From a bacterium (GTDB lineage Bacteria; Bacillota_I; Bacilli_A; RF39; UBA660), in contig JAHZBE010000002.1 in the NCBI GenBank assembly GCA_019423565.1, positions 83,692 to 147,691 on the forward strand: a DNA stretch of 64,000 nt, written 5' to 3'. The translations under genes and the position numbers were made by a program. Positions 4,646 to 32,672 of the stretch are shown piece by piece; position 1 is the first letter of the stretch, and each line of letters begins with the position of its first letter. The notes beneath the pieces are model-generated. The model saw only the letters and a program-made list of their open reading frames with translations, ran no database searches and had not been told where the DNA came from.

Positions 4646-4675
4646 TAAAAAAACCAACATTAGTTTATGTTGGCT
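4646..4675 (-). terminator. Rho-independent terminator of the transporter gene
   Basis: Stem CCAACAT/ATGTTGG (4654-4660 / 4667-4673) followed on the minus strand by an 8-T run, about 10 nt after the stop at 4684. Confidence 0.65.
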
Positions 4676-4683
4676 CTATAAAA

Positions 4684-13688: not shown

Positions 13689-14063
13689 ATGAATTTTATG
13701 AATAATAATGGATATTATACTGGTTATCAAAATACAAATATAGGAACTAGTTCTGGTTATCCTAATCAACAATATGCTCCAACAGTTGGTACAACAGAAT
13801 TTCCTATGGAACAATCTTATGTTGAAAACATTTTAAGATTAAATAAAGGAAAATATGGCAAATTTTATGTATCATTCCCAGATTCAATTGAATGGAAAGA
13901 TAAAATATTTACAGGTGTTGTTGAACAAGCAGGAAGAGATCATTTAATAATAAGTGATCCATCTACTGGAAAATGGTATCTTATATTAATGATTTATTTA
14001 AATTATGTTGAGTTTGAAGAGAATATTAATTATAGTCCTGATTTTACTTTAAAAGGATTGTAA
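13689..14063 (+). CDS. gerQ: Spore coat protein GerQ-like
   Basis: 124 aa. Q/N/Y/G-rich N-terminus followed by SYVENILRLNKGKYGKFYVSFPDS...GVVEQAGRDHLIISDP, typical of GerQ/YwdL. Confidence 0.6.
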   Translation: MNFMNNNGYYTGYQNTNIGTSSGYPNQQYAPTVGTTEFPMEQSYVENILRLNKGKYGKFYVSFPDSIEWKDKIFTGVVEQAGRDHLIISDPSTGKWYLILMIYLNYVEFEENINYSPDFTLKGL

Positions 14064-16413: not shown

Positions 16414-16683
16414 TTAAATAAATCCTTCATATCCATCTATTACATTTACCACGTTATATCCCATTACTTCTAAGAACTTACAACATCTTTTACTTTTAAA
16501 ACCTTCTGTACAATATATATAATATGTTTCATTTTTATCTAAATACATATGCGGCATATCAGTTAAATTATTCATATCAATATTTTTAGCATTGTATATG
16601 TGTCCTTTCATATATGCACCTTTAGTTCTTAAATCAATTATGTTATACTCTTTTTTTAAATCACATGCTTTTATATTTTTCAT
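16414..16683 (-). CDS. Rhodanese-like domain protein
   Basis: 89 aa, single rhodanese fold with active-site-loop Cys (YIYCTEGFKSKR). Confidence 0.7.
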   Translation of the reverse strand: MKNIKACDLKKEYNIIDLRTKGAYMKGHIYNAKNIDMNNLTDMPHMYLDKNETYYIYCTEGFKSKRCCKFLEVMGYNVVNVIDGYEGFI

Positions 16684-16750
16684 ATTTTCACCAGTCCACT
16701 ATATAATATGAAAAAAATTATTTACTCGTCACTATAATAGCCTAATACAA

Positions 16751-16836
16751 AAAAATGCACAAAATATTCAAAATATTGTGCATTTTCACTTTTTTTAAAC
16801 CCTATTTTGCACAATCATTGTGCATTTTTTATTCTT
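16751..16836. repeat. Direct repeat copy 1 (3' flank of fic): imperfect 27-bp palindrome + perfect 17-bp palindrome + stop codon
   Basis: 16756-16782 is TGCACAAAATATTCAAAATATTGTGCA. 16808-16824 is TGCACAATCATTGTGCA, followed by TTTT and the stop. It aligns without gaps to 17949-18034 at an offset of 1198 bp, with about 14 mismatches in 86 positions by eye. Confidence 0.85.
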
Positions 16837-17911
16837 TTCCCACAAATACATTATATATTTCACTATATCGATATGCAAGTTTAGCATAATTATCATCAAT
16901 TTCTAATATACCTATTTTTACAAGTTCATCAATTAAAGTCGAAACTGTATTTCTTGATACACCAGATTCTTCCTCTATTTCTTTTTTTGTAAATACAATT
17001 TGATGGATTAATGATGGCATAATTCTATAAACCGCATTACTATTTAGTGTTTTAATTTTTTGCATATCTTTATTATATATTTCTTTAATCCTATTTATTT
17101 TAGCAATATAATTATTACACTGTTCAATAACACATTGTAAAAAGAATTTAATAAATCCAGACATATTACCCTTTCTGCTTTCATTTAAATATTTATGATA
17201 ACTTGGTTTATATAGTTCAATTACTTCTGATAAGAAAAGTATTGGTTTGTCATCCGTTAGCATTGCAAGTTGTATTGGAATAAGAGCTCTACCTAATCTT
17301 CCATTTCCATCTCTATATGCATGTATCGTTTCAAACTGTGAATGAGAAATAGCCATATTTACAAATATTGGATCAATAAACTCATCATTCATATATTTAA
17401 ATAAATTATCTAAAAGAAGCGGAACATCCTCTGGAATAGGTGGAACATAGATGGCTTCTTTAATTGTACAACCTCTTGGACCAATCCAATTTTGAATATT
17501 TCTGATTTTTCCAGGTTCTTTATTTTGACCTCTAACGCTATCTAGTAATATTTTATGAATACTATTTACAAAAACTAAATCTATTTTTTTATTTTTTTTA
17601 ATATAATTTTCAGAATATTCAATTACTTCTTTTAAATTTTGTATCTCACTTTTTTCATCATTATTTGGCATATATTTTATATAATACATATCATCCTGAG
17701 AAATTTGTGTACCCTCAATTTGCGTAGATTTTAAACTTTCACTTAAAATGATTGAATCTAAAAAATATTTTGAATCAAAATCAATGTTTTTTAAATATGT
17801 TTTATACTCTCCATATTTTTCATTTGCTTCAGACAATAATTTTAATAATTCTTTATCAATTTTATATTCAATTGGTAACTCTTTTACTTTAATTGGTTCC
17901 ATTTCCATCAC
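16829..17911 (-). CDS. fic: Fic-family protein (AMPylase-type) with autoinhibitory helix and C-terminal winged-HTH
   Basis: 360 aa. Canonical Fic motif HAYRDGNGRLGR (encoded about 17290-17325). N-terminal inhibitory motif S-T-Q-I-E-G, matching [S/T]xxxE[G/N]. C-terminal HTH-like segment (SGVSRNTVSTLIDELVKIGILE). The true start may be the ATG at 17902. Confidence 0.85.
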   Translation of the reverse strand: MMEMEPIKVKELPIEYKIDKELLKLLSEANEKYGEYKTYLKNIDFDSKYFLDSIILSESLKSTQIEGTQISQDDMYYIKYMPNNDEKSEIQNLKEVIEYSENYIKKNKKIDLVFVNSIHKILLDSVRGQNKEPGKIRNIQNWIGPRGCTIKEAIYVPPIPEDVPLLLDNLFKYMNDEFIDPIFVNMAISHSQFETIHAYRDGNGRLGRALIPIQLAMLTDDKPILFLSEVIELYKPSYHKYLNESRKGNMSGFIKFFLQCVIEQCNNYIAKINRIKEIYNKDMQKIKTLNSNAVYRIMPSLIHQIVFTKKEIEEESGVSRNTVSTLIDELVKIGILEIDDNYAKLAYRYSEIYNVFVGKE

Positions 17912-17948
17912 CTACAGTGATATTAACATTTTTTTCTTCAAAAGTAAA

Positions 17949-18034
17949 GAAAATGCACAATATTTGCGATATTTTGTGCATTTTTACCTTTTTTAGACAT
18001 TGTTTTGCACAATGATTGTGCATTTTTTATTCTT
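17949..18034. repeat. Direct repeat copy 2 (between the virD4-like stop and the fic start)
   Basis: 17954-17980 is TGCACAATATTTGCGATATTTTGTGCA. 18006-18022 is TGCACAATGATTGTGCA, followed by TTTT and the stop. Internal spacing (25 nt) is the same as in copy 1. Confidence 0.85.
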
Positions 18035-20258
18035 CAAAGAAGAAATCATCAAAGAAGTCATCATAATCTGTATTACTTGTATTTTCTCCATTAGATGTTT
18101 CTTCTTGTTTAATATCCTTTTTATTATCTTCAACTTTAACTTCTTCTTTTGAATTTTCCTGTGGTTCTTCCTTCATCTTAAAATTATTAAAATCAACCAT
18201 ATTACTATGAACAACTTCATCAATTTTTGGATCTTTTGAAATTGTTTTTGTATCAAATAATTTTTCATCCGAATTATTAAATATATTATTCTGTATAGTT
18301 GTTTCTTTAGATTCTTCAATTTTGTTTTTTTCTGTTTCTTGTTTCTTCTTTTCTTCCTCTTCTTCTTTTTCAAGTTCTGCTATTTTAGCATCTATTTCTT
18401 TTATCATTTTATCAATGTCCATATCAGGACTCATACCTGGCATTCCTCCACCACCAAATGGATTCATACCGAATGGTGAACCTCCACCAATAGGTGAAGA
18501 ACTACCGTCCATACCAGCATTTTTTAACTTTTCTTGTTTTTGTTTTCTAACAAATTCTTTCAAATCAAATGTTTTAATCTCATCCATAGTTCTTTGTGGA
18601 TAAACAACATTTTTTCCATAGTGATCTGTACCTCTACCAAAACCGAAGTCTGTATCCCAATCCATCTTTAATTTGCCTCTAAATGGCGCACATCTTTGTT
18701 TAATTAATATGATTTCATCAGGCTTCATTCTTTGAAGTTCTGATACAGTTACAAGAGGTCTTGTTTCCTCCTTTTTATCCTTACCAACTCTAACAAGTTT
18801 ATCACCACATAATTTACTAATTTCTTCCAAAGCTGATAATTCACCTGTTAATAAGTATATTAGGTTACCACAGTTACCACGAATAGTTTCTGCATCATGA
18901 TCACCATAATTTTGTTTTAACTGGGCAAAGTTCTGGATAATAAATGTAAATCTTATTTGTCTTGAACGAGCTGCAGTAACCATTGTTGTAATATCTTTAA
19001 ACTTAGGCATGTTAGCAAACTCATCAAGTAAGAAGTTTGTTCTTACTGGAAGTTTTCCACCATGTTGTTGTGCAACATTTATTAATGCTTCATAACATTG
19101 TTTAACAAATATAGTAGCAAGTGAATGGTATGTTGTTTTTTCATCTTGTATAATCATAAATACCGCTGTTGGTTTTTCACCTATACTATCCATATCAAAA
19201 TCACTCTTAGAAAGCATTTCTGATAAGTTTTTAGTAACAGCTAGTGTTTTAACCTTATCCTTTAATACAGATACGATACCACCCTTTGTTTCATTTGGTG
19301 CATTAACTGTACCTAAAGCATTTACACATGCTGGCGAAGCTGGATCTTTTGCATTAAAATATTCTTTTAAATAATTTGATGCACCGTACTTATCTTCACC
19401 AGTTGTCATCATCAAATTAATACTATTTATATTTATTTCTTCTTCCGGAGCATCTTCAAATAACGCAAGTGATAAACCTGTTAAATAACTTGCAGCTGAA
19501 TTTTGCCAGAATGGATCATTTCCTTGACCATCAACAACTATATTAAGTGATAAGTCATTTAAAAGTTCATTTGCTTTATCAAAATTTCCTTCTTTTTGAT
19601 ATTTATATGGTAAATGATATGGATTCCAGCAATTACCTTTTTGTGGATCACGGAAATTAAGTATTATAATTTGATATCCAAGTTCTCTCATTATTCCAGA
19701 ATTATCGTTATATATTTCACCTTTAGGGTCAGATATAATCATTGATTCTCTACCTTTTATAAGCATTTGAACAGTTGGATTAATTATACCTTGAGTTTTA
19801 CCTGAACCAGTCGCACCAATAACAAGTGTATGACTTTCACCATTATCTACATAAGCAGCTTCTTTATCATATACTAAAGGTGTACCACCTGCTTTTGCTT
19901 CTTTTTCAACATATGGAACTCTTACAACACCTTTAGCAGATTTAATCTCCTTATCTTTAGCCCATCTAGCATAACCATCTTCTTTTTTCTCACTAGTATA
20001 ACCAAAGCCTTTCTCTCTAGTAAAGAAATATGATGATGTTGTACCAAATAAAAAACCTATAGTAGCAATCCATAAAATCAGAGTTACACCTATATATCTT
20101 GGTGTAAATGCGTAAAATGGATTTAATCCCCATGGTGTACCTTCATCTAATAAGGATGAAAAGTTAAGTATACAAACACATATTAAATATAAGATAAATA
20201 TTGATACCACTGCAAACGCAATTACATCTTTTTTTTCAGCTCTAAACTTAAGTTTCAT
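18027..20258 (-). CDS. virD4: VirD4/TraG-type type IV coupling protein
   Basis: 743 aa. Two N-terminal TM helices, Walker A VIGATGSGKTQG, Walker B-like FLLDEFANM. Long low-complexity C-terminal tail (G/P/M-rich, then E/K-rich, ending DYDDFFDDFFFEE). Confidence 0.85.
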   Translation of the reverse strand: MKLKFRAEKKDVIAFAVVSIFILYLICVCILNFSSLLDEGTPWGLNPFYAFTPRYIGVTLILWIATIGFLFGTTSSYFFTREKGFGYTSEKKEDGYARWAKDKEIKSAKGVVRVPYVEKEAKAGGTPLVYDKEAAYVDNGESHTLVIGATGSGKTQGIINPTVQMLIKGRESMIISDPKGEIYNDNSGIMRELGYQIIILNFRDPQKGNCWNPYHLPYKYQKEGNFDKANELLNDLSLNIVVDGQGNDPFWQNSAASYLTGLSLALFEDAPEEEININSINLMMTTGEDKYGASNYLKEYFNAKDPASPACVNALGTVNAPNETKGGIVSVLKDKVKTLAVTKNLSEMLSKSDFDMDSIGEKPTAVFMIIQDEKTTYHSLATIFVKQCYEALINVAQQHGGKLPVRTNFLLDEFANMPKFKDITTMVTAARSRQIRFTFIIQNFAQLKQNYGDHDAETIRGNCGNLIYLLTGELSALEEISKLCGDKLVRVGKDKKEETRPLVTVSELQRMKPDEIILIKQRCAPFRGKLKMDWDTDFGFGRGTDHYGKNVVYPQRTMDEIKTFDLKEFVRKQKQEKLKNAGMDGSSSPIGGGSPFGMNPFGGGGMPGMSPDMDIDKMIKEIDAKIAELEKEEEEEKKKQETEKNKIEESKETTIQNNIFNNSDEKLFDTKTISKDPKIDEVVHSNMVDFNNFKMKEEPQENSKEEVKVEDNKKDIKQEETSNGENTSNTDYDDFFDDFFFEE

Positions 20259-20296
20259 CTAATCCACTTCTCCCTTTTAAATCTATTTATATTATA

Positions 20297-20326
20297 ACAA
20301 AAAAAAAGGTATTTTTAAATACCTTT
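20297..20326 (-). terminator. Rho-independent terminator between the hydrolase and virD4-like genes
   Basis: 8-bp stem AAAGGTAT/ATACCTTT (20305-20312 / 20319-20326) plus a T-run on the minus strand, 5 nt after the stop at 20332. An extended -10 TGtTATAAT (20291-20299) follows immediately and could drive virD4. Confidence 0.7.
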
Positions 20327-20331
20327 AATAA

Positions 20332-23148
20332 TTATTTTGCATATGTATTGTATATTCTTTGAGCGTTTGCTGTTCTGTTTCTTATTTCTTTATTACAATC
20401 TGTTTGTTGATTTCTACAATGTGTTCTACCACCATATTCATATACAATAAGAAATTCTGATGCAGCTTTTGATACATCATCTGTAGATTTTAAAAGTTTG
20501 TATAATTCTTTATATTCACCACCTGGACTAATTCCATGCGTTTCAGGTTCTTTCATTGATATATCCAAAAACAATAATTGAGTCTCAAGATCAGCGACAT
20601 ATTCTTTTCCTTTAAAATCATATAATGCTTCTTTTAGTGTACACCAAGTAAATCCAGCAATTCCAAATCCACCATCACCAGGTGCATAATTTGTACAACT
20701 AGTTCCAACCAATGTACCAGTAAATTTTTCTTTTGATATTTCACCTGAAGCAACTTTTTTAGCGTATTCTGTATTTAAATGGTCCTCATCACCATTAACT
20801 ATATCAGGATAATATGTCGATTCTTGGAAAAAGTTTCCCATCATTCCTGCTGCACCTGCTTTAGTATATCCTAGAGATAATAAATAATTCCATATATCCG
20901 GTTCTGCTTCTGGACCAACTCTTTTAAGTGAACCTGTTAATGCACCACAAGGAATAAATAAATTTGTTGGATCAATTGCAGTTCCATTTGAATCCTGTAA
21001 TGCATCCATAAATGTAAAATGCAATCCTTCCGTATTATATTCACTTGAATCTATAGATGCAATTGCATCACCCTTATTAACCGTAAGCCCCTCTTTCAAA
21101 GTAGATATTGGCTTAACATTTGAATATATTGTTATAAATTTATATTCTTTTTCATTTATAGTTACATCATGACTTATTTTTACAGATTTTCCACAAGTAT
21201 TCTCGCCACATTTAGCATCAGTAATTGATTCAACTTTACCTTTAGCAACAGAATAAACACTATCACCTGCTTTAACACCTGCAGTAGTTTCATTCAAATC
21301 TACACCATTATGATTTTTACCATTAACTATACCATATGAATAATTTGTATCAAAATTAACAGTAGTTCCATCAGGTATATTTACCGGTTTACCTAATTCA
21401 GACACTAGTGCACTATCTATTGCTCCAACACAAGTTTCAGAATATTCTTCACTAGAACCACTTGTATTCCTTAAAAATATATCTCTAAATAAACCTTCAT
21501 TAGCTACAATATCTTTATATAACATTTCTTTCTTTTGTTCTAAAGCATCATCAGTTAATCCACCTATATAATTATGAAATTCAGGCATATTCATAAAATA
21601 ATAATTCATTAAATAATTCTTATAATTATCTTCATCAAATACATATGTATCATAATAAGTAACTGTAATTTTTAAGCCACTTCTATCAACTGACACTATA
21701 TCATATATTCCATAAAATAAATCTCCTACTAAACTAGCCAGAGAGGAAACAAAATCTTCTGCAACTAATCCTTCGTTTTCAAAAAATGAACCAGAATATT
21801 CAGATCCCAATAATAAAGCCGTTAACTCTTTAAATGGTGCAGTAATAACACCCCATGAAGCACCCAAAATATCTGTTAATACATCTGACGTATCACTGGC
21901 AATCAATTTAGCATTATTTTTTATAAAATCGAGTAATGAAACAGTTATTGGAGTACCAGATCTTGTCGCATTTCCAAAAAAATCTGTACTAAACTGATTC
22001 CTTGCAAGTTTCCTTAATCTATATATCTTACCAGTATTATAAACAAGTCCATCAGAATCAACAGTTTGTTGTGCCTCATCAAATTTATCTCTCATCCATT
22101 CTTTTGCTCCCTGAAAATATCCTGAATTTGAAGATTGGCTATTCATAGAATTATCCACAGCACTTTCGTCCTCAATATTTTGATATTTAGTATCATATCC
22201 AGCACCCTCTGTATAAAAAAGTGTTGAAAGAAGAAGAGGAACATTTAATCCTTCACCATTATTGTTATTATCACAACCATACCTATCACATAAATCATCA
22301 ATTTCGTCATAAAACGCTTCCTTTGAATCTTGAAAACCAAAACCGCTATAAAAGTTTGATAACTTTTCACTAAAATTGGCTACTCCAGTTATAGCTTCAT
22401 CAATATTTCCCCAAACTTCCATTAAAGGTCCAAGAATTAATTCAACAACAAAAAGAATTAATAATGGTCCAAGTGCTAGCAAAACTAGAAAAAGAGCTAA
22501 TCTCATTTTCATTTTCTTTATAAATGCACTTGAAATCATAGCTAAAGCATCGCTAGGGTGAGTTGCAGCATACGCTTTTGATTTTAAATGATCCTTTTTA
22601 ATATTTCTAAGATTTTTTTTGTCTTGTTTAAGTTTGTTTTTTTCGTCATTTAATTTGTTTTTAGCTTCTTTATCTTCTTTTTTTGCAGAATCCAAATTAT
22701 TCTTATCATCTAAATTTCTTTGACTCGTAGAAACCATTCTATTATCGTTTCTTACTTTTTTTAATCTTTCTGCACTTTGGTCTTTATTATTACTTGCCTT
22801 TTTTATATTTTCTTTAGTATCATTAATTCTATCCTGTGCATCTTTTTTTAAATTATTGTAATGATTTTTATCATTTAATCCTTTTTTAAAAGCTTCTCGA
22901 CCACTACTTGCCTTATTATATTTTCCATTTTTTACGTCGTCTATCTTTTTTTCATCATTATCCGTAGTTCCGCTTATCTGTTCACTTTCACTGTTTTCAA
23001 TATTTGATGATATAGAAGATGTATCAGCTTTTTTTTCATCATTTTCTGTAATACCATTTACAGACTCATTTTCACTATTTTCATTGGTTGATGAAACGGA
23101 AGATGAATCATCATTTCCAACTTCTTTAAAATCTTCTTCATTTTCCAT
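20332..23148 (-). CDS. T4SS-associated bifunctional cell-wall hydrolase (M23 peptidase + lysozyme-like domain)
   Basis: 938 aa. Charged N-terminus with a duplicated about 25-aa S/N/E-rich unit and one TM (LALFLVLLALGPLLILFVV). M23 motifs (GKNHNGVDL ... GLHFTF). The C-terminal IWNYLLSLGYTKAGAAGMMGNFFQES...GFGIAGFTW resembles the phage-tail-lysozyme type domain. Confidence 0.75.
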   Translation of the reverse strand: MENEEDFKEVGNDDSSSVSSTNENSENESVNGITENDEKKADTSSISSNIENSESEQISGTTDNDEKKIDDVKNGKYNKASSGREAFKKGLNDKNHYNNLKKDAQDRINDTKENIKKASNNKDQSAERLKKVRNDNRMVSTSQRNLDDKNNLDSAKKEDKEAKNKLNDEKNKLKQDKKNLRNIKKDHLKSKAYAATHPSDALAMISSAFIKKMKMRLALFLVLLALGPLLILFVVELILGPLMEVWGNIDEAITGVANFSEKLSNFYSGFGFQDSKEAFYDEIDDLCDRYGCDNNNNGEGLNVPLLLSTLFYTEGAGYDTKYQNIEDESAVDNSMNSQSSNSGYFQGAKEWMRDKFDEAQQTVDSDGLVYNTGKIYRLRKLARNQFSTDFFGNATRSGTPITVSLLDFIKNNAKLIASDTSDVLTDILGASWGVITAPFKELTALLLGSEYSGSFFENEGLVAEDFVSSLASLVGDLFYGIYDIVSVDRSGLKITVTYYDTYVFDEDNYKNYLMNYYFMNMPEFHNYIGGLTDDALEQKKEMLYKDIVANEGLFRDIFLRNTSGSSEEYSETCVGAIDSALVSELGKPVNIPDGTTVNFDTNYSYGIVNGKNHNGVDLNETTAGVKAGDSVYSVAKGKVESITDAKCGENTCGKSVKISHDVTINEKEYKFITIYSNVKPISTLKEGLTVNKGDAIASIDSSEYNTEGLHFTFMDALQDSNGTAIDPTNLFIPCGALTGSLKRVGPEAEPDIWNYLLSLGYTKAGAAGMMGNFFQESTYYPDIVNGDEDHLNTEYAKKVASGEISKEKFTGTLVGTSCTNYAPGDGGFGIAGFTWCTLKEALYDFKGKEYVADLETQLLFLDISMKEPETHGISPGGEYKELYKLLKSTDDVSKAASEFLIVYEYGGRTHCRNQQTDCNKEIRNRTANAQRIYNTYAK

Positions 23149-23182
23149 TTTATCACCACCTTTTACTTCAAATATTTATATA

Positions 23183-24973
23183 TTATAATCCGCCTCTTGT
23201 ACCAAACGAATCAAGTTCTGCATCTGTTGCTATTACACTTATTTGCATACGTTTACTACCACATACAAATAATGCATCTCCTTGATTATATCTCTTAATA
23301 CCTTCTTTTTCATTATCATTTAAATCAATTAATTTTGATAAATCTTCAACAGCTTGCTTTTTAAGTCCCATAACAAGATAATATGAAGCATTATCAAATA
23401 TTGCTTTACCCTGCATTAATACATTTGGAGCAGCAAAGTCACTTGGTTGTTGTGTTATAATTATTGTTCCACTATTATATTTACGCGCTCTTCTTTGTAC
23501 TTGGGCTAAGAAATCTGCACCAAGCATATTATTATTTCCAAGTAAAATATGAGCTTCATCTACTTGTAATACTGTGTTTTGACTAGGATCAAGACATAAT
23601 CCCCAAGCATATTTTAATATATTAAAGAATAAGGCATTTTTTATATTTACTTCCGCATTTATTAATTCTCTAATATTGAATACAATAAAATTTGATTTTG
23701 GACTTATTGTAGTATGTCCATCAAAATAATGTTCAAGTCCACCAGAAATTAATGGTCTAACTTTTAATTCAAGTTTTTCCATTATATCTCTTTCCCTAGT
23801 AGCTTCACCATATGAAAGTATTCTTCCACGGATAGTTGTATAAACATCACTAAATGTAGGAAAATCTTCACTTGTTAATGTTGTAAAGTCAGTTTTAACG
23901 TTAATATTAAATCTTTGATATGTTTCAACAACAACCTCATTAAATAATGTTAATACATCCTCTTCAATTGATGGATCATAATATTTCATAAATGCTTTTA
24001 AAGTTTGAAGAGTCTTAGCTAAAACCGCATAACCAAGTCCTCTTGACGATTCTTCTTCGTCAGCATCTGGAACTATTTCAAGTGGATTAATCATACCAAA
24101 TTCTCCACCACGTCCTAAATCTATAAAGTCACCATTATAAAGTCTCGCCATTGGTTCAAGTTCACCTTCTGGATCTATTGCAATTATTTTATAACCATTT
24201 CTTACATGTGATCTCAAAAGTAATTTAGCTGCAGTTGATTTACCTGATCCAGAAGTACCAAGAATAATCATATTAGCATTATTTCTATTATGTTCTTTTT
24301 TTATTTGATATAAGAATTGATTAAATAAAATTATACCACCAGAAAAATCTACACCAAGTAAGCAAGATAATCCCTGATCCTTAATACTATCAAATACAAA
24401 AGGATACATAGCCGCAAGTGTTGGTGATGGAATTGGTGTTCCAATTCTATCTTCAATATCTTGCTTACCAAATATAGGTAAACATGATTTTAATACTTTT
24501 TCCTGTTCAAATCTAAGAGGAATAGCTCTCATTTCCATGGCTTCTAATGTTGATTTTAAAGATACCTTTGTTCTTTCAAGTTCTTCCTTCGTATCAGCTG
24601 TAATCATTATATGCATCTGAAAATCAAATACCTTTGATTGATTTGTAGTAATAACTTTAATAAATGATTCAAGTGATTCATAATCTTGTCTTATTCTTTC
24701 TTGATATGTTACATCTGGTTCTTTTTGATACTTATCGTATAAATCTACTAATTGTTTATTTAGCATTTTAGAAACAACTTCAAATGCAACAGGTATATGT
24801 TTAATAACTATTTTTACTCCCGCCATACCAGAAGTTAAGCTTGATAAATAACCCGCTGTAATATATTTTGGATATGATAAAACAGTAAGTATAGTTGCAA
24901 ACTTATCGCTAACAATAAAATCTGATGTATTAAATGTTAATCCCTTTGGAGCAAGTTCAGTTTTAATCCCCAT
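23183..24973 (-). CDS. virB4: VirB4-like conjugal transfer ATPase, ATPase body
   Basis: 596 aa. Walker A ILGTSGSGKSTAAK, Walker B VLQVDEAH. Confidence 0.85.
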   Translation of the reverse strand: MGIKTELAPKGLTFNTSDFIVSDKFATILTVLSYPKYITAGYLSSLTSGMAGVKIVIKHIPVAFEVVSKMLNKQLVDLYDKYQKEPDVTYQERIRQDYESLESFIKVITTNQSKVFDFQMHIMITADTKEELERTKVSLKSTLEAMEMRAIPLRFEQEKVLKSCLPIFGKQDIEDRIGTPIPSPTLAAMYPFVFDSIKDQGLSCLLGVDFSGGIILFNQFLYQIKKEHNRNNANMIILGTSGSGKSTAAKLLLRSHVRNGYKIIAIDPEGELEPMARLYNGDFIDLGRGGEFGMINPLEIVPDADEEESSRGLGYAVLAKTLQTLKAFMKYYDPSIEEDVLTLFNEVVVETYQRFNINVKTDFTTLTSEDFPTFSDVYTTIRGRILSYGEATRERDIMEKLELKVRPLISGGLEHYFDGHTTISPKSNFIVFNIRELINAEVNIKNALFFNILKYAWGLCLDPSQNTVLQVDEAHILLGNNNMLGADFLAQVQRRARKYNSGTIIITQQPSDFAAPNVLMQGKAIFDNASYYLVMGLKKQAVEDLSKLIDLNDNEKEGIKRYNQGDALFVCGSKRMQISVIATDAELDSFGTRGGL

Positions 24974-25514
24974 TATTGATCACCGTCCCACTTTCATATT
25001 TAACACCACCATTTAAGAAATTATCTATAATCATTCTTAAATCATCATTAGATGTTTGTGATGCAATTAAACCACAATTAGCAAGTTCACTAATTAAACT
25101 TCTAATTCTCTTTTGTATTACATCATTATCTTTCGATTTAAACAAAATGAAATACTCAGTATCCACTATACCATTATTAACAAATAATTCAGCCTTCGCA
25201 ATATCATCTGATAGTAATTTTCTATATATAGGACTCTGTGCATCATTTAACTGAAGTTGAAGTTGTGATACATATAAATTTATATCAACAGGCCTATCAG
25301 CTATAATAAGCCAAAATTCATAATCAATCAAATTATAAAAAGTTCTAAAAGATTCTATTATTTGATCTCTATAATTTTCTTCAAGTATAAAAATATTTCT
25401 AGGTTGTACTTTTACACCCGTAACCATTTCTTTATTATCAAGTAAAATAACATTATTATTAATATCCTTAACAGGAATCCACTTTTCAGTATATATACTA
25501 CTATTTGTACTCAT
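24963..25514 (-). CDS. virB4: VirB4 N-terminal domain encoded as a separate overlapping ORF (probable frameshift)
   Basis: The 183-aa ORF (WIPVKDINNNVILLDNKEMVTGVKVQPRNIFIL...) resembles the N-terminal domain that is fused to the ATPase in Gram-positive VirB4 homologues such as Tn916 ORF16, as I recall it. The overlap falls in the C4 run 24968-24971. One base fewer fuses the two as ...VINNG-IKTELAPKG... Confidence 0.65.
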   Translation of the reverse strand: MSTNSSIYTEKWIPVKDINNNVILLDNKEMVTGVKVQPRNIFILEENYRDQIIESFRTFYNLIDYEFWLIIADRPVDINLYVSQLQLQLNDAQSPIYRKLLSDDIAKAELFVNNGIVDTEYFILFKSKDNDVIQKRIRSLISELANCGLIASQTSNDDLRMIIDNFLNGGVKYESGTVINNGD

Positions 25515-25806
25515 TCTTATAACACCAACCTTCCCATTTATAATTTCTCCTTCCGTAAAAGAAATCTATTATCTCTCTTATTAACGTTAATATATTATGA
25601 TAATTTGGTATTGGAACAACTAAAAATCCTGTAACTAGTAATGGTATTAAACATATTAATGAGAGATTGAAAGTAGTAGGAGCAATTATCAAAAGTAATA
25701 ATACAGATAAAACTACTCCACTACCAAATAAAATTAAATCAAATTTCGTAAATAATCCAAATATTAACGTACCTTTTTTGGCATTTGCAGGTATTAAATA
25801 ATTCAC
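25501..25806 (-). CDS. PrgI/VirB3-like small two-TM T4SS protein
   Basis: 101 aa with two hydrophobic helices, positioned immediately upstream of virB4 as in Gram-positive conjugation modules. Confidence 0.6.
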   Translation of the reverse strand: MNYLIPANAKKGTLIFGLFTKFDLILFGSGVVLSVLLLLIIAPTTFNLSLICLIPLLVTGFLVVPIPNYHNILTLIREIIDFFYGRRNYKWEGWCYKNEYK

Positions 25807-25824
25807 TATGTATCACACTCCCTT

Positions 25825-27885
25825 TTATTTGACATTTTCTTTATTAACTTCATTTCCAACTTTAACATATGCTTTCATTCTTGTCTTATCATTTTCTCCC
25901 ATCTTATCAAGCATAGCATTATATGCTGACTCCGCTGTTGAGAAAGCAATGTTAGCATCATTAATTTCGTCGGCAATTTCTTGTTTAGACTTTGTCATAC
26001 CTTTATCTGCGAAATCAACCGAATACTGAATCAATCTTTGAGCTGTATCAGTTAATCCACCACTATCTGTAACAAAGGATGAAATACCACTATTTGATAA
26101 ATTGGACATCAATTGTTTTGTATTAATTTGTCCTGAATCAAAATTAGTTTGCATTTCCAATATTTTTTGTTTTTCATCATTCGAACTTGCAGCTTTCATT
26201 GCATTATTCAATATTTCCCCTACAGAATTATAACTATTCTGTGCATTTTCAGCCTGTAACAACTTAAATTTCTTTTCCATATAACTATTTGCTGTTGCCT
26301 TTTGATTCTTTTTAAATGGAGATTTATCCATAATCGATTTTGATTGAACACCTTGTGCAATTTTTTTATCTATATTTCCTTCTGCATCATATAAATTACC
26401 TTTAACACTGTTTGCAATAGCTTGTGCTTCTGCTTTAGCCTTATCCTTAAGCTTATTAATTTTATTTTGTTCTTTTTCATATTGTCTAGTTGGATTAGCA
26501 TTTTCGTTCCACGTTTTAATTGCATCCTTCGTACCTGCAATTCCATTTGTAGATCTGAAGAATGCACCTGCTGTTTTTGTTAATCTACCTGGTGTTCTAT
26601 CTTTCCAAGCACCTTTTCCTCGGAATCCTTTATTCCAACCATAAGCACCAAATCCTCCAACTAGTCCTGCACCTAGTGCAACTGGCCAATGAGATAACGC
26701 AGCTGCTCCTAATAATCCTGCACCTGCACCAACTTCTCCAACTTTTTTTACAGCTCCCCAAGCTTTTTGTGCCTGTTTTCCAACTGCGGCCATTTCTCCA
26801 AGTCTTCCACCAATACCACCTTTAAGTTTGATATCAGTACCAAATACTTTATTTATCAAATCTGGTAATTGTTTAACAAATATAAGCATTCCAACAATTA
26901 AAAATGCTTTTAAAACAAAACTCCAATCTTCACCTTGAAATGGTTTTAAAAATGATGATAAATTTGATATTAAAAACAAGTAAAAAGCAATACATGCTAT
27001 TCTTATAAATAAATCCATATAAGTTTTTACTAATTCTTGAAACCAAGATGATAAAATTTTATCACCAGCTGCTATATAACCAACAATAGATATAGGCGCA
27101 GTTAATTCCATAAATGCAAGTTTAAATACTCTTACTGCAACATCCATAGAATAAATTACAAGTATATATACACACCCAAGACCACATACAATTGCAAGTA
27201 ATCCATTAAAGTCAAAAGCATATTTTGTATCAGCACCTGCAATCCAACCAGCATTTTCATTATCTGTCGTCGTATTAATATGTTCAGCAAAATTTCCAAT
27301 ATGTTTAATATCTTCGGCAATCATCGCGTTGTAAGATTCTTGAACATCCTCATCAACTTGAATCGTTCCATCATCAACAGGAACAACTACTGATGAAATT
27401 AATGTACCCGCAATAACTTGACCGCCATTACCACCAGATTTACACTTTTCTTCTGCATTTTCTGTTGCTTCGTCACCCTCAACACCACCATCAACTTGAC
27501 AACTTATACCCGTTCCAACAATTATCTTTTCTATCAAACTATTATCCATTATATTTGCTTGTACTGCGTACAAAATATCAAATAATAACGGAACAGCAAC
27601 CATCATAACTAATGCCAAAATAGATCTTTTAAATAATGCCGTTACGCCTTTCTTGTTATCACCTAATAAATCTGGATTTACAATCGCAGATAAAATAACA
27701 ACTGAAAAAGCAAATAGCATTACCACACTTACTAACACATAAATATTAGAAGAAAATTGACTAATAATTTCTGAATCTAAAAATCTTGTGTTAGCTAAAT
27801 TATAAAAAATATAGTATATATACTTTATCAATCTATAAATTGGAATACATATATATATAGCTAGCTTTCTTAATAATGCACTCAT
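25825..27885 (-). CDS. VirB6/TrbL-like polytopic T4SS channel protein
   Basis: 686 aa. Multiple TM helices in the N-terminal two-thirds, a Gly-rich segment (GGIGGRLGEMAAVGK...GAGAGLLGAAAL) and a hydrophilic K/N/Q-rich C-terminal third. Confidence 0.65.
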   Translation of the reverse strand: MSALLRKLAIYICIPIYRLIKYIYYIFYNLANTRFLDSEIISQFSSNIYVLVSVVMLFAFSVVILSAIVNPDLLGDNKKGVTALFKRSILALVMMVAVPLLFDILYAVQANIMDNSLIEKIIVGTGISCQVDGGVEGDEATENAEEKCKSGGNGGQVIAGTLISSVVVPVDDGTIQVDEDVQESYNAMIAEDIKHIGNFAEHINTTTDNENAGWIAGADTKYAFDFNGLLAIVCGLGCVYILVIYSMDVAVRVFKLAFMELTAPISIVGYIAAGDKILSSWFQELVKTYMDLFIRIACIAFYLFLISNLSSFLKPFQGEDWSFVLKAFLIVGMLIFVKQLPDLINKVFGTDIKLKGGIGGRLGEMAAVGKQAQKAWGAVKKVGEVGAGAGLLGAAALSHWPVALGAGLVGGFGAYGWNKGFRGKGAWKDRTPGRLTKTAGAFFRSTNGIAGTKDAIKTWNENANPTRQYEKEQNKINKLKDKAKAEAQAIANSVKGNLYDAEGNIDKKIAQGVQSKSIMDKSPFKKNQKATANSYMEKKFKLLQAENAQNSYNSVGEILNNAMKAASSNDEKQKILEMQTNFDSGQINTKQLMSNLSNSGISSFVTDSGGLTDTAQRLIQYSVDFADKGMTKSKQEIADEINDANIAFSTAESAYNAMLDKMGENDKTRMKAYVKVGNEVNKENVK

Positions 27886-27901
27886 TTCTTACCTCCTATT
27901 C

Positions 27902-29401
27902 TCATTCCCCATTTATAATACAATCCATCAAGCTATAATCACCACCAAATATACTTAATAATAAGCTTATAATTAGTGGTATAGTAATGAACAATATAAG
28001 TAATATCAATCTTTTTGGGAAATTCTTCTTTGATTTATTCATTTTTTCTACATCCGATGCAATTACAGCTTTTGCATAGTCTAAAGTTCCAAAAAATATT
28101 ACAGCAACTGGAGCTAAAATTCTAAGTACCACATAAAACCAGTGGAAAAAACTAACATCATCACATGTAAGTTCATAATGTTTATCAAAATTAATATCTA
28201 AAGTGGGGGCAGAAATACCTGAAAAATTTTTCCATAACTTTTCCTTATTATCCTCTAATTCCTTTTCAAGTTCTTCCTCATTTCTTTCTGCTTGTTTTTT
28301 ATATTGTTCTAAGCACTTGTTTTTTTCTGCATCTTGCGGTATTGAATAGCAATATTTACAATGATTAAAAGCATCGGAACTTCTACAGAATTTTTCCGCA
28401 TCTCCGTTTTCATTTTTACAATAATAATTACAAATAGGTATTTTTTCTTCTCCATCATCTTTATTGTTATCATCATACTTATCTTTTTTATCTTCAATTT
28501 TTTTAACATCAACTAGACTTTCTAAAAATGAAACGCAATTTTCATAATCAGTATTATCATCTAAACTATGATAAATTTTTTTATAAAACCACAGTAAATA
28601 TTCTGGATCATACTCAAGCATTACATATGAAGTAATGGTATACCAATTCATATAACGAACACGTAATAAACCAGCATAACTAGGATCAACATTTTCATCT
28701 TCTAATCCATAATTTTTTGTTGTTTTAGTTACATCACTTTCAACATTTTTTTTCGTCTGTTGATAATATTCTAGAGCTATGCCGCCTTCAGAATACTTAA
28801 TATCACAAGCTGCTAATTTTGCTTTTACGTCATTTTCACTCCCGTTAGAAACGAGTTCATTATAAACATCATGCTTATATTGAAATGTAGGATCATCTTT
28901 TTCTAAATTTTCTTTAAACATATACAGTTGTACACCTGCTTTAATAGATTTTTTTAAATCAATATAATATCCTTCATCCTCATTTGCACTAGATAATGGA
29001 TTGTAAATTAAATTGCCATTATAAAAAACCTCAGAATTTTTATTTGTCCTTTTCGCTTCAAATCCCGAACCTATGCCGTCATAATATACAATTATAAAAC
29101 TAGGACATCCATTATTCTTTACTTCAGATTCAAAACTTAAAGAAGAAAAAGATAAACCTGTTGGTGATGTAAATTTCATATTATAATCTAAAAAATTTTT
29201 AGAATAATCAAGTCTAATAGCAATGCCTTCATAAACAGCAGCTGTTCCAGTACCGGTACCAGCTCCGTATAATACCTTACCATCACGAACAGGTTCGGAA
29301 TACGTATAGTATTTACAATTTGCCTCAACTTTTTTATTAACAAACGTTGATATAAATACTATAAAAAATATTACTAAAATATTTAAAATTTTTCTTTTCA
29401 T
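27902..29401 (-). CDS. Secreted Cys-rich protein with C-terminal pilin-like (VirB2-like) two-TM module
   Basis: 499 aa with a signal peptide and a Cys-rich central region (CNYYCKNENGDAEKFCRSSDAFNHCKYCYS). The C-terminal about 95 aa (about 27902-28190), LRILAPVAVIFFGTLDYAKAVIASDVEKMNKSKKNFPKRLILLILFITIPLI, is paralogous to the 135-aa protein. Confidence 0.6.
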   Translation of the reverse strand: MKRKILNILVIFFIVFISTFVNKKVEANCKYYTYSEPVRDGKVLYGAGTGTGTAAVYEGIAIRLDYSKNFLDYNMKFTSPTGLSFSSLSFESEVKNNGCPSFIIVYYDGIGSGFEAKRTNKNSEVFYNGNLIYNPLSSANEDEGYYIDLKKSIKAGVQLYMFKENLEKDDPTFQYKHDVYNELVSNGSENDVKAKLAACDIKYSEGGIALEYYQQTKKNVESDVTKTTKNYGLEDENVDPSYAGLLRVRYMNWYTITSYVMLEYDPEYLLWFYKKIYHSLDDNTDYENCVSFLESLVDVKKIEDKKDKYDDNNKDDGEEKIPICNYYCKNENGDAEKFCRSSDAFNHCKYCYSIPQDAEKNKCLEQYKKQAERNEEELEKELEDNKEKLWKNFSGISAPTLDINFDKHYELTCDDVSFFHWFYVVLRILAPVAVIFFGTLDYAKAVIASDVEKMNKSKKNFPKRLILLILFITIPLIISLLLSIFGGDYSLMDCIINGE

Positions 29402-29440
29402 AAGTAAACCTACTTTCTCACTATAATAATAACATAAATT

Positions 29441-29467
29441 AAAAAAAAAAGAAACATATATTTTCTT
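29441..29467 (-). terminator. Intra-cluster terminator/attenuator immediately after the pilin-like gene
   Basis: On the minus strand: AAAGAAA-atatatg-TTTCTTT followed by an 8-T run, 3 nt after the stop at 29470. Confidence 0.55.
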
Positions 29468-29469
29468 TT

Positions 29470-29877
29470 TTATTTATCATATCTATCGCTTTGGTCCAAC
29501 TTAGGCCCATGAGTAGCTGCATCCCAGCATGCTGCAAAATTACTTTTTGGTGCCGCAAAAGTTATTACCGCTTCAACTATTGTTGGTATTAAGAATACTA
29601 TAACTGCTGCAATTATTCTCTTTACAAAAGGTTTTTGAGCTTCTTTAATTTTCTTCTCATCACCAGCTATAACAGCTTTTCCCATATCTAATGTTCCAAA
29701 TAAAATCAATCCAAAAGGTACAGCTATTCTTAATATTCTTATAGCTAATTTTACTAAATATAGAATACCAAGAATTGTTTCTGTTGGATCCTCACCGTTT
29801 CCTGTAGCAAAACTACATTCACCATCTAAAAAATCCAAAACATTTAATAAGTTCAACATAATTAATCCTCCTAACAT
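29470..29877 (-). CDS. VirB2/TrbC-like pilin-like small membrane protein
   Basis: 135 aa. Hydrophobic leader and two TM helices around LRIAVPFGLILFGTLDMGKAVIAGDEKKIKEAQKPFVKRIIAAVIVFLIPTIV. AGGAGG RBS at 29867-29872. First gene of the T4SS cluster. Confidence 0.55.
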   Translation of the reverse strand: MLGGLIMLNLLNVLDFLDGECSFATGNGEDPTETILGILYLVKLAIRILRIAVPFGLILFGTLDMGKAVIAGDEKKIKEAQKPFVKRIIAAVIVFLIPTIVEAVITFAAPKSNFAACWDAATHGPKLDQSDRYDK

Positions 29878-32647: not shown

Positions 32648-32672
32648 ATAATCACTTCTCAAACTTAAGCGT

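Follow-up and report, generated by a model that had tools for sequence, protein, structure and literature searches.

A predicted SoFic-family toxin gene is gained or lost as a single-gene cassette next to a conserved palindromic repeat

Introduction

SoFic is a single-gene anti-phage defense system (Millman et al. 2022; structures 3EQX and 9VJC). The SoFic homologs that have been studied protect against phage by abortive infection, with AMPylation of a target such as EF-Tu, and wild-type EcSofic is too toxic for cloning under leaky expression. SoFic-type toxins are among the commoner single-gene anti-phage systems, but little is known about their safe expression or their movement between genomes. 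As a dimer, SoFic binds to the 100 bp that directly precede its own gene. Similarly, CccR from Yersinia pseudotuberculosis (PDB 7XUX), which is a class II Fic protein with a C-terminal HTH domain, represses its own promoter. The footprint of CccR contains 10-bp inverted repeats that are separated by 26 bp and lie near the -35 and -10 boxes, and binding to DNA requires the dimer. CccR is also an effector of the type VI secretion system (T6SS).

In integron attC cassettes and in the pdif modules of Acinetobacter plasmids, gene cassettes are bounded by repeated recombination sites. Phage "morons," a term of Hendrix and colleagues, are reportedly autonomous promoter-gene-terminator units that lie between other genes. 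Streptococcus prophages such as Javan616 can carry MloA/SoFic-like genes at their right end; in Javan616, the order is holin, lysin, a terminator-promoter, and MloA last.

Here, we analyze a fic gene that lies between two copies of a palindromic repeat, directly after a virD4 gene. An earlier note on this DNA, made from its letters alone, had described the arrangement, and we compare it to related loci and to the systems above. By "the window" we mean the whole 64-kb stretch of DNA that we analyzed.

Results

The fic gene and its surroundings

All of the genes at the locus are on the - strand. The features are:

16414-16683, - strand: gene for a rhodanese-domain protein (Pfam Rhodanese, 7e-14), the first housekeeping gene after the cassette
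16749-16836, - strand: downstream module, of the type that is alone in empty alleles (direct repeat; nhmmer E = 1.3e-19)
16755-16783, no strand: H2 of the downstream module, followed by T7 in the gene orientation; predicted fic terminator
16808-16824, no strand: H1 of the downstream module, TGCACAAT-C-ATTGTGCA
16829-17902, - strand: fic, encoding a predicted SoFic-family class II Fic/AMPylase of 357 aa with a C-terminal winged HTH (wHTH)
17920-17948, - strand: predicted fic promoter, read from the sequence
17947-18034, - strand: upstream module, of the type that travels with fic (direct repeat; nhmmer E = 1.4e-18)
17953-17981, no strand: H2 of the upstream module, ATGCACAA-N13-TTGTGCAT, with an A-run before it and a T-run after it on both strands
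18006-18022, no strand: H1 of the upstream module, the perfect 17-bp palindrome TGCACAAT-G-ATTGTGCA
18027-20258, - strand: virD4-type coupling protein gene of a type IV secretion system (T4SS), 743 aa (Pfam T4SS-DNA_transf, 7.8e-60; TraG-D_C; TrwB_AAD_bind)

virD4 closes a short T4SS-like block (~18027-29877), with T4SS_pilin, TrbL_4, and VirB4-like genes further along.

The Fic protein matches Fic_N (6.5e-15) and Fic (1.1e-15) in Pfam, with a weak hit to HTH_36 at residues 309-336. The SoFic model in PADLOC (PDLC03963) aligns residues 6-353 to HMM positions 11-358 of 361 (E = 4.9e-87). In the PDB, the protein aligns to SoFic (3eqx) over residues 151-338 and to CccR (7xux) over the Fic domain, and the C-terminal 103 aa alone have only weak matches to wHTH regulators. 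The weak HTH_36 hit and the full-length similarity to SoFic agree with the earlier note's view that the C-terminus is of the wHTH type; the putative recognition helix is SGVSRNTVS (residues 313-321). The earlier note was also right about the class II inhibitory helix: besides the Fic_N domain, we found the autoinhibitory motif STQIEG (residues 59-64), which fits (S/T)xxxE(G/N). The catalytic motif HAYRDGNGRLGR (residues 194-205) fits HxFx(D/E)GNGRxxR, with Y instead of F. Relatives in the databases are also 357 aa long and begin with MEPIKV. Given this domain content, we predict that fic encodes a class II toxin of the SoFic family, which is known for single-gene anti-phage defense by abortive infection. 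There is no room 3' of fic for a small antitoxin ORF like EcAS1, as the module fills the 145-nt gap to the next gene. The SoFic literature that we examined does not mention a direct-repeat module flanking SoFic loci.

The repeated module

A repeat search recovered the direct repeat in the 3' flanks of virD4 and fic that the earlier note had reported. By this search, it spans 88 nt without gaps, 74/88 identical (84%), at an offset of 1198. We call each copy a module (length ~85-88 nt). Each module contains two palindromes, H1 and H2, which share one half-site, TGCACAAT. H1 is a perfect 17-bp palindrome in both copies (TGCACAATCATTGTGCA downstream and TGCACAATGATTGTGCA upstream), and only the center differs, just as the note said. 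H2 has the form ATGCACAA-N13-TTGTGCAT in both copies, a pattern with 0 matches in 100 shuffles.

In the orientation of the genes, the order is stop codon, A-run, H1, 25-nt spacer, H2, and T-run. For instance, the upstream module reads TAA-AAAA-H1-25 nt A-tract spacer-H2-TTTT, and the TAA is the stop codon of virD4 (18027-18029). The downstream module has the same layout and starts at the stop codon of fic (16829-16831). The earlier note placed four T and the stop codon after the 17-mer; this is correct on the + strand (TTTT, then TTA, the complement of the stop codon), and the order is reversed in the gene orientation. The stop codon is also not the edge of the repeat, as had been thought: the last 8 nt of the repeat, AAGAATAA, are the final codons of virD4 and fic alike. 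The statement that the two 27-mers (H2) are near reverse complements is true but trivial, since both are palindromes of one family.

In the window, a profile search with the whole unit found only these two copies (E ~1e-19), and the 17-mer has no third copy even with up to 3 mismatches. Each of 13 MAGs has just one module locus, as judged by a scan pattern that covers 42% of the known variants, and the flanks of module-bearing loci contain no extra unlinked copy. With two linked copies in 64 kb and one locus in 13/13 MAGs, we rejected the dispersed REP or terminator family that the earlier note had raised. Matches to the 17-mer alone are often spurious: in a metagenome scan, ~96 of 120 loci were chance matches (median GC 0.46, without H2) and were discarded, as were 31 of the 37 viral matches. 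A search of the region against Rfam gave only sub-threshold chance matches (STnc240 and STnc40) and no known RNA family.

Occupied and empty alleles

We identified related loci, which we refer to by L numbers. The arrangement virD4-module-fic-module-rhodanese is found at this site in the window, L011, L134-L137, and L141. L064 and L042 are empty at this site: virD4 and the rhodanese gene are separated by one module, without fic. The flanks of L064 are 95.5% and 99.2% identical to those of L011. There are further occupied/empty pairs at three other sites, with flanks up to 99% identical (L003/L104, L083/L081+L051, L089/L112, and L066/L016). Natural empty alleles with a single module are thus known from four chromosomal sites, which makes fic a presence/absence cassette. 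The earlier note had proposed a single-gene cassette, whose relatives would have or lack fic between single copies of the repeat, and this is what the comparison of L011 to L064 shows.

The note's proposed origin for the cassette, by duplication of the virD4 terminator, does not fit. The upstream copy moves with fic behind unrelated genes (EF-P, an MBL hydrolase, ThiI, or tRNA-Thr) and is directly followed by the predicted fic promoter. The module of the empty alleles corresponds to the downstream copy alone: in L064 and L042, the single module is of the downstream type over its whole length. The H2 variant in the window's upstream module, and the promoter behind it, are common to the upstream copies of L011, L077, and L134-L144. 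In total, there are at least 12 different genomic contexts, and the link of fic to virD4 is incidental. Three loci (L012, L001, and L002) have fic with the upstream copy only. Between loci, the modules are 83-96% identical, versus 77-81% for the coding sequence of fic.

We also examined the other neighbors of the module for defense-type cargo, and these are mostly ordinary genes. In one case, a three-gene block is inserted exactly at the module's right edge. In L128, two modules bracket something other than fic. Solo modules are also found behind endolysin genes in phage contigs, with no fic in the fetched flanks. We compared 14-24 kb of the window to a plasmid collection with megablast and found no match.

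The module is coupled to the predicted fic promoter

The module is upstream of fic in every locus with that side visible (~50 related loci, from metagenomes of gut Bacilli or "Tenericutes"), regardless of the upstream gene. In the window, H2 is followed by a predicted -35 box, TTTACT (17943-17948), a 17-nt spacer, an extended -10 box, TGT-TAATAT (17920-17928), and a ribosome binding site, AGGTGA (17908-17913). Across 21 distinct upstream regions, TTTAC(T/A)-17 nt-TGnTAnAAT begins 5-8 nt after H2 in nearly all. Because the module precedes fic wherever that side can be seen, and because this predicted promoter directly follows H2, we assign the module to fic rather than to virD4.

Every fic locus has four TGCACAAT half-sites within ~120 nt upstream of the predicted start site. 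H2 lies at roughly -43 to -70 on the predicted promoter, and both palindromes are upstream of the -35 box. We considered an attenuator, in which the right arm of H1 and the left arm of H2 would form an antiterminator under the influence of a ribosome on the stop codon. Since the fic promoter is downstream of the module, the module is not in the fic leader, and we set this idea aside.

Evidence for termination

The module always lies behind a stop codon or the 3' end of a tRNA, and it has the stable stem-loops and U-runs that are expected of intrinsic terminators. In silico, the H2 hairpin has a folding energy of -10.5 kcal/mol (sense) or -12.9 kcal/mol (antisense) in the upstream module and -12.4 kcal/mol (sense) in the downstream module. 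Antisense H2 ranges from -10.6 to -12.9 kcal/mol and is accompanied by T-runs, and sense H2 is followed by T4-T7. As RNA, H1 can fold into a stem of 7 bp and a loop of 3 nt (-7.2 kcal/mol), and U6 comes after it on the + (antisense) strand. The earlier note had argued that an RNA hairpin cannot use this palindrome; given these values, we see H1 as a plausible antisense terminator. We infer that the module works as an intrinsic terminator in both directions.

Arm substitutions that affect one side only show an asymmetry as well: 17 G.U or U.G cells pair only in the fic-sense RNA versus 1 that pairs only in the antisense, although there were probably fewer than 10 independent events behind this. 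Covariation of the stems did not reach statistical significance, as the arms hardly vary (98-99% of cells are paired, with only 2 double changes in the core arms), and 36-99 of 500 shuffles reach the observed values. The case for RNA structure therefore comes from the hairpin energetics, the U-runs, and the G.U asymmetry.

Evidence for an operator

The earlier note suspected that a dimeric DNA-binding protein reads the palindromes. Given the precedents of CccR and SoFic and the fixed spacing of the half-sites, Fic itself is a reasonable candidate. In 59 of 60 distinct copies, the gap between the half-sites of H2 is 11 nt. The same half-site occurs in H1 with a gap of 1 nt, and the difference is one helical turn. 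The spacer between H1 and H2 is 24-26 nt across the 60 copies, while the intervening sequence drifts (69% pairwise identity in the spacer). H2 was not used as bait, and in 49 copies the core positions of its arms show little or no variation. The upstream region of fic itself has inverted half-sites at a fixed spacing, and the inner ones are inverted and 25 nt apart. The invariant half-sites and the fixed spacing suggest, by analogy to CccR and SoFic, that the module is probably also an operator for Fic's own wHTH domain. The sites of CccR are near or over the -35 and -10 boxes. Here, by contrast, 5-8 nt separate the end of H2 from the predicted -35 box that follows it, so simple occlusion of the promoter is not an obvious mechanism.

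In more distant Fic proteins, the arms and the recognition helix vary together between clades, which is indirect support for binding by Fic. In 7 of 8 Fic clades at 36-62% identity, a palindrome between an A-run and a T-run lies just upstream of the promoter, with an arm sequence that is specific to the clade; a plain terminator would show the same. The helix SGVSRNTVS is nearly invariant within the TGCACAAT clade and different in other clades, but these differences fall in proteins that are more divergent everywhere. Also, an operator alone leaves unexplained the full second copy downstream of fic, the three loci with fic and the upstream copy only, and the persistence of solo modules with no fic in the fetched flanks.

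Discussion

A proposed insulated cassette

We propose, with a probability of roughly 60%, that fic is an insulated autonomous unit in which the module is both a bidirectional terminator and a probable operator for Fic, and that recombination between the repeats leads to gain or loss. The transcription unit would consist of a module, fic's own sigma-A promoter, fic, and a second module. H2 and its U-run would end sense transcripts: those of virD4 in the upstream module and those of fic in the downstream module. In the other direction, antisense transcripts would be halted by both palindromes, as H2 and H1 also have U-runs on the opposite strand. In this way, a gene whose leaky expression is probably toxic would have its own promoter, 5 nt after H2, as its sole source of transcription. 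The wHTH domain of the dimeric Fic probably binds the four invariant half-sites at their fixed spacing and represses fic. Because the two modules are direct repeats, homologous recombination or slippage between them could delete fic and leave one module behind, and recombination with a module elsewhere could reinsert it, which would make fic variable between strains, although this does not account for the first arrival of the unit at each new site.

Alternative explanations

The module might be a tandem bidirectional intrinsic terminator whose palindromes have no protein reader, with the conservation due to recent ancestry, gene conversion, and a need to preserve the only three G:C pairs of a stem in a genome with 25% GC. 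We consider this possible but doubtful. It would account for the hairpins with U-runs on both strands, for the consistent 3' location in transcription units, and for the G.U asymmetry, which suits a constraint on RNA or single strands. There are also signs of gene conversion, as the two copies of L089 share a variant of the H2 loop that is missing from the empty allele L112, and distant Fic genes and the MloA gene of a Streptococcus prophage have unrelated hairpins at the same place. But indels are tolerated in the loops and inner stems of RNA, whereas H2 keeps a length of exactly 27 nt in all but one of the distinct copies, and the H1-H2 spacer keeps its length despite A-runs that are prone to slippage. 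A terminator gives no RNA-level reason for the same 8-mer to appear in H1 and H2, H1 has no U-run after it in the sense direction, and the conserved A-tract at spacer positions 13-17 does not flank a hairpin. Also, the phage copies retain both palindromes ahead of a separate canonical terminator, and the module is more conserved between loci than the coding sequence of fic is. If the module were instead an att-, dif-, or attC-like site, with H2 as 10-bp inverted arms around a 7-bp center, then the fic cassette would be inserted and excised by a tyrosine recombinase or a similar enzyme that a phage or a conjugative element provides in trans. The fixed 27-nt geometry of H2 suits a recombinase core, and homology breakpoints lie at module edges or arms (such as the 12-nt AAAAATGCACAA repeat in L016/L066). 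The three-gene block at the module's right edge, the pair of modules in L128, and the modules that lie beside tRNA-Thr genes or within ~100 nt of the right ends of prophages point the same way. However, the join is not fixed: at sites 1 and 4 it falls to the left of the H1 loop, at site 3 it coincides with the right end of H2, and in L066 it is a hybrid of H1 and H2 arms, and this variability suits homology-driven events. No recombinase family was found by Pfam among the called genes of L134-L143 or the scanned ORFs of the window, and we consider this explanation very unlikely.

More specific versions of a recombination site can be rejected. Neither module contains the integron core motif (GTTRRRY/RYYYAAC), and there is no integrase among the annotated neighbors, so these are not integron attC cassettes. 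For prophages, the phage-host junction is ~45 nt beyond the module, past a separate terminator, and the chromosomal modules lack the junction sequence, so the module is not the core or arm of a phage attP. Another idea, which the earlier note raised in part, involves the adjacent T4SS: Fic might be a translocated effector like the Bartonella Beps, or the palindromes might be an oriT or relaxase site. In the window, fic does directly follow virD4; at site 3, a virD4-like gene is located ~0.6 kb downstream of the module; and CccR, which is secreted by a T6SS, is a precedent for the secretion of a Fic-HTH protein. But in most contexts, including at least 10 that contain fic, the fetched flanks are free of T4SS genes, and fic is missing from strains that have this T4SS block (L064 and L042). 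Fic has no BID or other secretion domain in Pfam and matches the cytoplasmic SoFic defense family end to end, and no relaxase was found in the window. Given that the linkage to virD4 is not conserved, we give a role in the T4SS hardly any weight.

Implications

Returning to the insulated cassette, this would be a natural case of a toxic defense gene that is insulated on both sides by a predicted bidirectional terminator. The occupied and empty alleles at four sites show gain or loss via 85-nt direct repeats. The half-site TGCACAAT, in two fixed geometries, is a candidate operator in a very abundant gut clade (>3,800 relatives). The presence of the element at the right ends of phages hints at exchange or interference between phage and host. 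A more speculative idea, which we think is improbable, is that the module is a SoFic-responsive DNA element common to hosts and phages that serves as a decoy or a cue and also as a homology patch. If so, operator copies at the right ends of phages, where other phages carry SoFic-like genes, might titrate or switch off the host's Fic toxin. Alternatively, the phage copies could be a DNA cue that the toxin senses. And the element could be a patch of homology that moves defense cassettes among phages, T4SS islands, and chromosomes. The locus does not overturn current ideas.

Comparison to known systems

The Fic protein resembles the studied SoFic proteins in its full-length family match, its class II helix, its intact Fic motif (with H194, as in EcSofic), and its C-terminal wHTH-type domain. 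Like theirs, the gene stands alone in a variable locus, with other defense-like genes close by. In contrast to the studied proteins, to which it is ~30-35% identical, it has no small AS1-like antitoxin ORF downstream. CccR is built from the same domains and has its inhibitory motif at identical residue positions (S59...E63), and its 10-bp half-sites, 26 bp apart, are comparable to the inner 8-bp half-sites here, which are 25 nt apart. But the repeats of CccR are a single pair near the -35 and -10 boxes, whereas the present locus has two palindromes, with all four half-sites upstream of the predicted -35 box. And CccR is a T6SS effector, while the present Fic is assigned to a defense family and its binding to DNA is predicted by analogy.

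Like integron and pdif cassettes, a single promoter-bearing gene lies within imperfect palindromic repeats, there are occupied and empty alleles, and other cargo adjoins the same repeat. Here, however, no integrase or Xer-type enzyme is linked, attC core motifs are absent, and the position of the crossover is variable. Exchange looks homology-driven.

As in morons, fic has a predicted promoter and predicted terminators of its own, and in empty alleles the neighbors virD4 and rhodanese are one module apart. As in the MloA locus, a terminator hairpin leads straight into the promoter of a single cargo gene with its own terminator, and the module in gut phages occupies the same post-endolysin position as the terminator-promoter of Javan616. 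The differences are that both terminators here are copies of one composite element, which is common to chromosomes, a T4SS island, and phages, and that the phage copies have no fic in the fetched flanks. Overall, the parts are of known kinds, in an arrangement that has not been described before.

A repeated module with two palindromes flanks fic

The window has a GC content of about 25%, and nearly all of the genes near fic are on the - strand. A repeat search found a single gap-free direct repeat, 88 nt long and 74/88 identical, whose copies are 1198 bp apart and lie on either side of fic. Each copy contains two palindromes, H1 and H2; we will call the element (about 85-88 nt) the module.

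16829-17902, - strand: fic; 357 aa, starts MEPIKV, Fic_N and Fic domains, sits between the repeats
16749-16836 and 17947-18034: the two repeat copies
16808-16824 and 18006-18022: H1, a perfect 17-bp palindrome, TGCACAAT-N-ATTGTGCA, one per copy
16755-16783 and 17953-17981: H2, a longer palindrome, ATGCACAA-N13-TTGTGCAT, one per copy
17943-17948 (TTTACT) and 17920-17928 (TGT-TAATAT), - strand: predicted fic promoter

The two copies of H1 differ only at the centre base. In gene orientation, the module runs from a TAA stop codon through AAAA, H1, a 25-nt spacer, and H2 to a T-run; the first copy starts at the stop codon of virD4 and the second at that of fic. We found no further copies of H1 or H2 in the 64 kb, even with 3 mismatches allowed or with a profile search for the whole unit. 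The repeat and palindromes are thus as the earlier note described them, and with two copies only in 64 kb, they are far beyond chance.

Fic is a SoFic-family protein

The Fic protein has a class II inhibitory motif (STQIEG, residues 59-64) and a catalytic motif (HAYRDGNGRLGR, residues 194-205). It can be aligned to SoFic (PDB 3EQX) through the C-terminal winged-helix domain, and it matches PADLOC's model of the SoFic anti-phage defence protein from end to end (E = 4.9e-87). SoFic was published as a stand-alone Fic defence protein, with abortive infection as its described mode of action, and leaky expression of wild-type EcSofic was too toxic for cloning. The idea that fic encodes a T4SS effector is not supported.

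The module is linked to fic rather than to virD4

Using H1 and its T-run as the query, we scanned one genome per species and found 13 loci, one contig per MAG, all from uncultured gut Bacilli or "Tenericutes". H1-only scans of metagenome and viral contigs yielded about 30 further true copies amid many chance matches, and looking up relatives of Fic gave more loci. (Related loci are numbered L001-L184, each with its own coordinates.)

In every locus with the region upstream of a 75-99% identical fic visible, a module is present there, regardless of whether the gene before it is virD4, EF-P, an MBL-fold hydrolase, ThiI, a 119-aa zinc-ribbon protein, or tRNA-Thr. Because these genes vary, a local duplication of the virD4 terminator, as had been suggested, is not supported. 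Nearly all of 21 distinct upstream regions have a sigma-A-type promoter, TTTAC(T/A)-17 nt-TGnTAnAAT, that starts 5-8 nt past the right arm of H2. Most loci also have the downstream module; it is absent from L012, L001, and L002, whose fic genes have other terminators. In L006 (6708-7762), the module lies ahead of another Fic gene, which is shorter (292 aa), has 27% identity over the Fic domain and a PADLOC SoFic match at 1e-15, and carries a promoter of its own some 50 nt farther downstream.

We rejected a dispersed family of terminators: the window holds only the two linked copies, and the flanks of module-bearing loci contain no extra, unlinked copy. The strict scan pattern recovers 18/43 variants that were found independently; at that rate, a single additional copy in each genome should have produced about 5 extra matches over the 13 MAGs, and none was seen.

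Occupied, empty, and other alleles

The proposal that fic is a cassette is strongly supported by occupied and empty alleles at four sites. With flanks up to 99% identical between paired alleles, the presence/absence events are recent.

Occupied and empty alleles of the fic cassette (MOD, module)
Site 1 (the window's own). Occupied, virD4-MOD-fic-MOD-rhodanese: window, L011, L134-L137, L141. Empty, virD4-MOD-rhodanese: L064, L042
Site 2. Occupied, MBL hydrolase-MOD-fic-MOD-UvrD-like helicase: L003. Empty: L104
Site 3. Occupied, zinc-ribbon gene-MOD-fic-MOD-AraC-like gene: L083 (also L066). Empty: L081, L051 (also L016)
Site 4. Occupied, tRNA-Thr-MOD-fic-MOD-permease: L089. Empty: L112

When L064 is compared to L011, the lone module is of the downstream type over its full length, and the join lies within the longest identical stretch, AAGAATAAAAAATGCACAAT. 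Site 4 follows the same pattern, and at site 3 the lone module is closer to the upstream copy. L066 differs from L016 by a 1245-nt insert with a 12-nt repeat (AAAAATGCACAA) at its borders, and one of the hairpins is a hybrid of H1 and H2. The join therefore falls within the module at a position that varies, which is more in keeping with homologous recombination or slippage than with a site-specific enzyme.

Several loci show variations. At site 3, L083 (10062-10300), L028, and L066 have a third, H2-only derivative of the module with the fic promoter, about 65 nt after the full module; in L066, a hybrid hairpin (the H1 flank joined to the H2 loop) replaces the full module. At site 4, both modules of L089 (3102-4405) carry the H2 centre variant TTCGAGAA, which is not in the otherwise 98.5-99% identical empty allele (L112:1571-1666). 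This suggests gene conversion between the flanking copies. In L128 (2304-3866; sense 3733-5280), two modules 1464 nt apart surround non-fic content, namely a 177-aa ORF without a family match and some 800 nt of degraded sequence; partial versions occur in L093 and L080.

Site 1 has a third allele (L138-L140, L142, and L143; L138:5075-7620), with an inserted block that consists of a CapH-like XRE gene, a gene for a 465-aa fusion of a CapP-like M78 peptidase and a Fic domain, and a gene for a 139-aa protein. The insertion point is exactly at the end of the downstream module's T-run, a third module is absent, and the block looks like a protease-gated Fic toxin system. In L056, the module is followed by a gene that joins an HTH to a SocA/Panacea domain. 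Thus, the virD4-rhodanese gap is a hot spot for toxin or defence-type cargo.

Predicted terminator and candidate operator

The earlier note held that H1 could not form an RNA hairpin, which is not borne out: H1 folds into a 7-bp stem with a 3-nt loop (-7.2 kcal/mol), and on the antisense strand it is followed by U6 and was flagged by a terminator scan. H2 folds at -10.5 to -12.9 kcal/mol, with an A-run before it and a U-run after it on both strands. The module is therefore predicted to stop sense transcription once and antisense transcription twice. Insulating fic from the virD4 operon and from convergent transcription would be a sensible function, since SoFic is toxic. Across 49 distinct copies, the core arms of H2 are 98% paired, and the few one-sided changes are almost all A-to-G, giving G.U in the fic-sense strand: 17 G.U or U.G cells pair in that strand and 1 pairs only in the antisense. 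A site read in duplex DNA would predict symmetry instead of this 17:1 pattern. Formal covariation was not significant among these 49 copies because the arms hardly vary.

Termination does not explain several other features. The H2 half-sites are 11 nt apart in 59 of 60 distinct copies, and the H1-H2 spacer is 24 nt in 11, 25 nt in 48, and 26 nt in 1, even though the spacer varies freely at its centre and has A-runs prone to slippage. Positions 13-17 of the spacer hold a conserved A-tract that adjoins no hairpin. Both H1 and H2 are built from the same 8-mer, with a gap of 1 nt in H1 and of 11 nt in H2, a difference of one helical turn. Also, between loci, the module is more conserved (83-96% identity) than the fic coding sequence (77-81%).

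There are precedents for a Fic protein that reads such a site. CccR, a class II Fic protein with a C-terminal HTH, has its inhibitory motif at the same residues as the window's Fic; as a dimer, it represses its own promoter via two inverted 10-bp repeats 26 bp apart. In the module, H1-right and H2-left form an inner pair of inverted half-sites with 25 nt between them. The SoFic dimer binds its own gene's upstream region (the first 100 bp), and DNA binding switches the activity of CbFic2.

As an in silico test of co-variation, we sampled eight clades of Fic relatives at 36-62% identity. In 7/8 clades, an A-run, a palindrome, and a T-run lie just upstream of the promoter, with arms that differ by clade (TCACTG, GTATAC, CTATAG, ACCATTT, TACACAA, or ATACAAAAA). 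In a 46%-identical relative (L184:97-130 and the downstream end of its fic), both palindromes carry the 10-mer half-site AGAAAACTAT, which parallels the sharing of half-sites in the window's clade with a different sequence. SGVSRNTVS, the putative recognition helix, hardly varies within the TGCACAAT clade and is different in every other clade. Judged from these sequences, the arms and the helix fit co-evolution between an operator and its protein. Clade-specific arms would be expected of a plain terminator too, and the test therefore lends support to an operator but does not decide the matter. The suggestion that Fic's winged HTH reads the palindromes thus has indirect support from the fixed spacing, the CccR and SoFic precedents, and the clade-wise arms and helix.

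Modules in phages

At eight loci, with three different lysins, the module directly follows a holin-endolysin cassette. These are from metagenomes (L027, L030, and L116:6684-6758) or viral contigs (L148, L159, L167, and L178); L174 is a variant in which the module follows a separate terminator. In the phage copies, H2 lacks the sense-strand T-run, and a separate canonical terminator (CCTATC..GATAGG, T8) follows, with the host junction about 45 nt beyond. The phage modules are within about 100 nt of the prophage's right end, and two viral contigs stop 20-40 nt past the module. We found no fic within the fetched flanks. In sequenced Streptococcus prophages, the SoFic-like "MloA" is the last gene, in the same position after the lysin, and a terminator leads into its own promoter. 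Hence the fic unit is laid out like a phage moron. The modules found in phages could be scars or landing pads for homologous exchange or, at low probability, SoFic-responsive elements of the decoy type.

Other genes of the window

18027-20258, - strand: VirD4-type coupling protein gene, the last gene of the short T4SS-like block
18027-29877, - strand: T4SS-like block (pilin, 499-aa unknown, TrbL-like, two small ORFs, VirB4-like ATPase, M23/lysozyme, VirD4)
29963-32662, 33846-34781, and 45735-46742, all - strand: defence-like genes (SF1 helicase-DUF2726 and two AbiD/Abi_2), mixed among housekeeping genes

The T4SS-like block is bordered by housekeeping genes: rhodanese, DedA/VTT, RmuC, LemA, GerQ, and PduL on one side and HtrA, CdaA, NrdD, and Mur ligases on the other. 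We found no relaxase or integrase in the window and no replication gene for the block. In related MAGs, the part of the block that is seen (M23/lysozyme and virD4) has the same gene order. The block may be a domesticated or decayed conjugative element.

The SF1 helicase has a DUF2726 nuclease-like end and matches the MkoA/MkoC models of Mokosh. At 50775-53222 and 53236-61020 (both - strand) are genes for two very large surface-type proteins (815 and 2594 aa, respectively), which are built of repeated cadherin-like beta-sandwich domains, with at least 16 repeats in the larger. A gene for the spore-coat protein GerQ is at 13689-14063 on the + strand (Pfam, 3.4e-36), and the genome's nearest relatives are labelled as uncultured Tenericutes or Bacilli, which points to a lineage that forms spores or is mislabelled.

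Overall reading

In our best reading, fic encodes a SoFic-family defence toxin and lies in a strain-variable cassette that is predicted to be insulated and is probably self-repressed, with a copy of a putative composite terminator/operator element at each end. We found no description of such an element in Rfam or the publications consulted.
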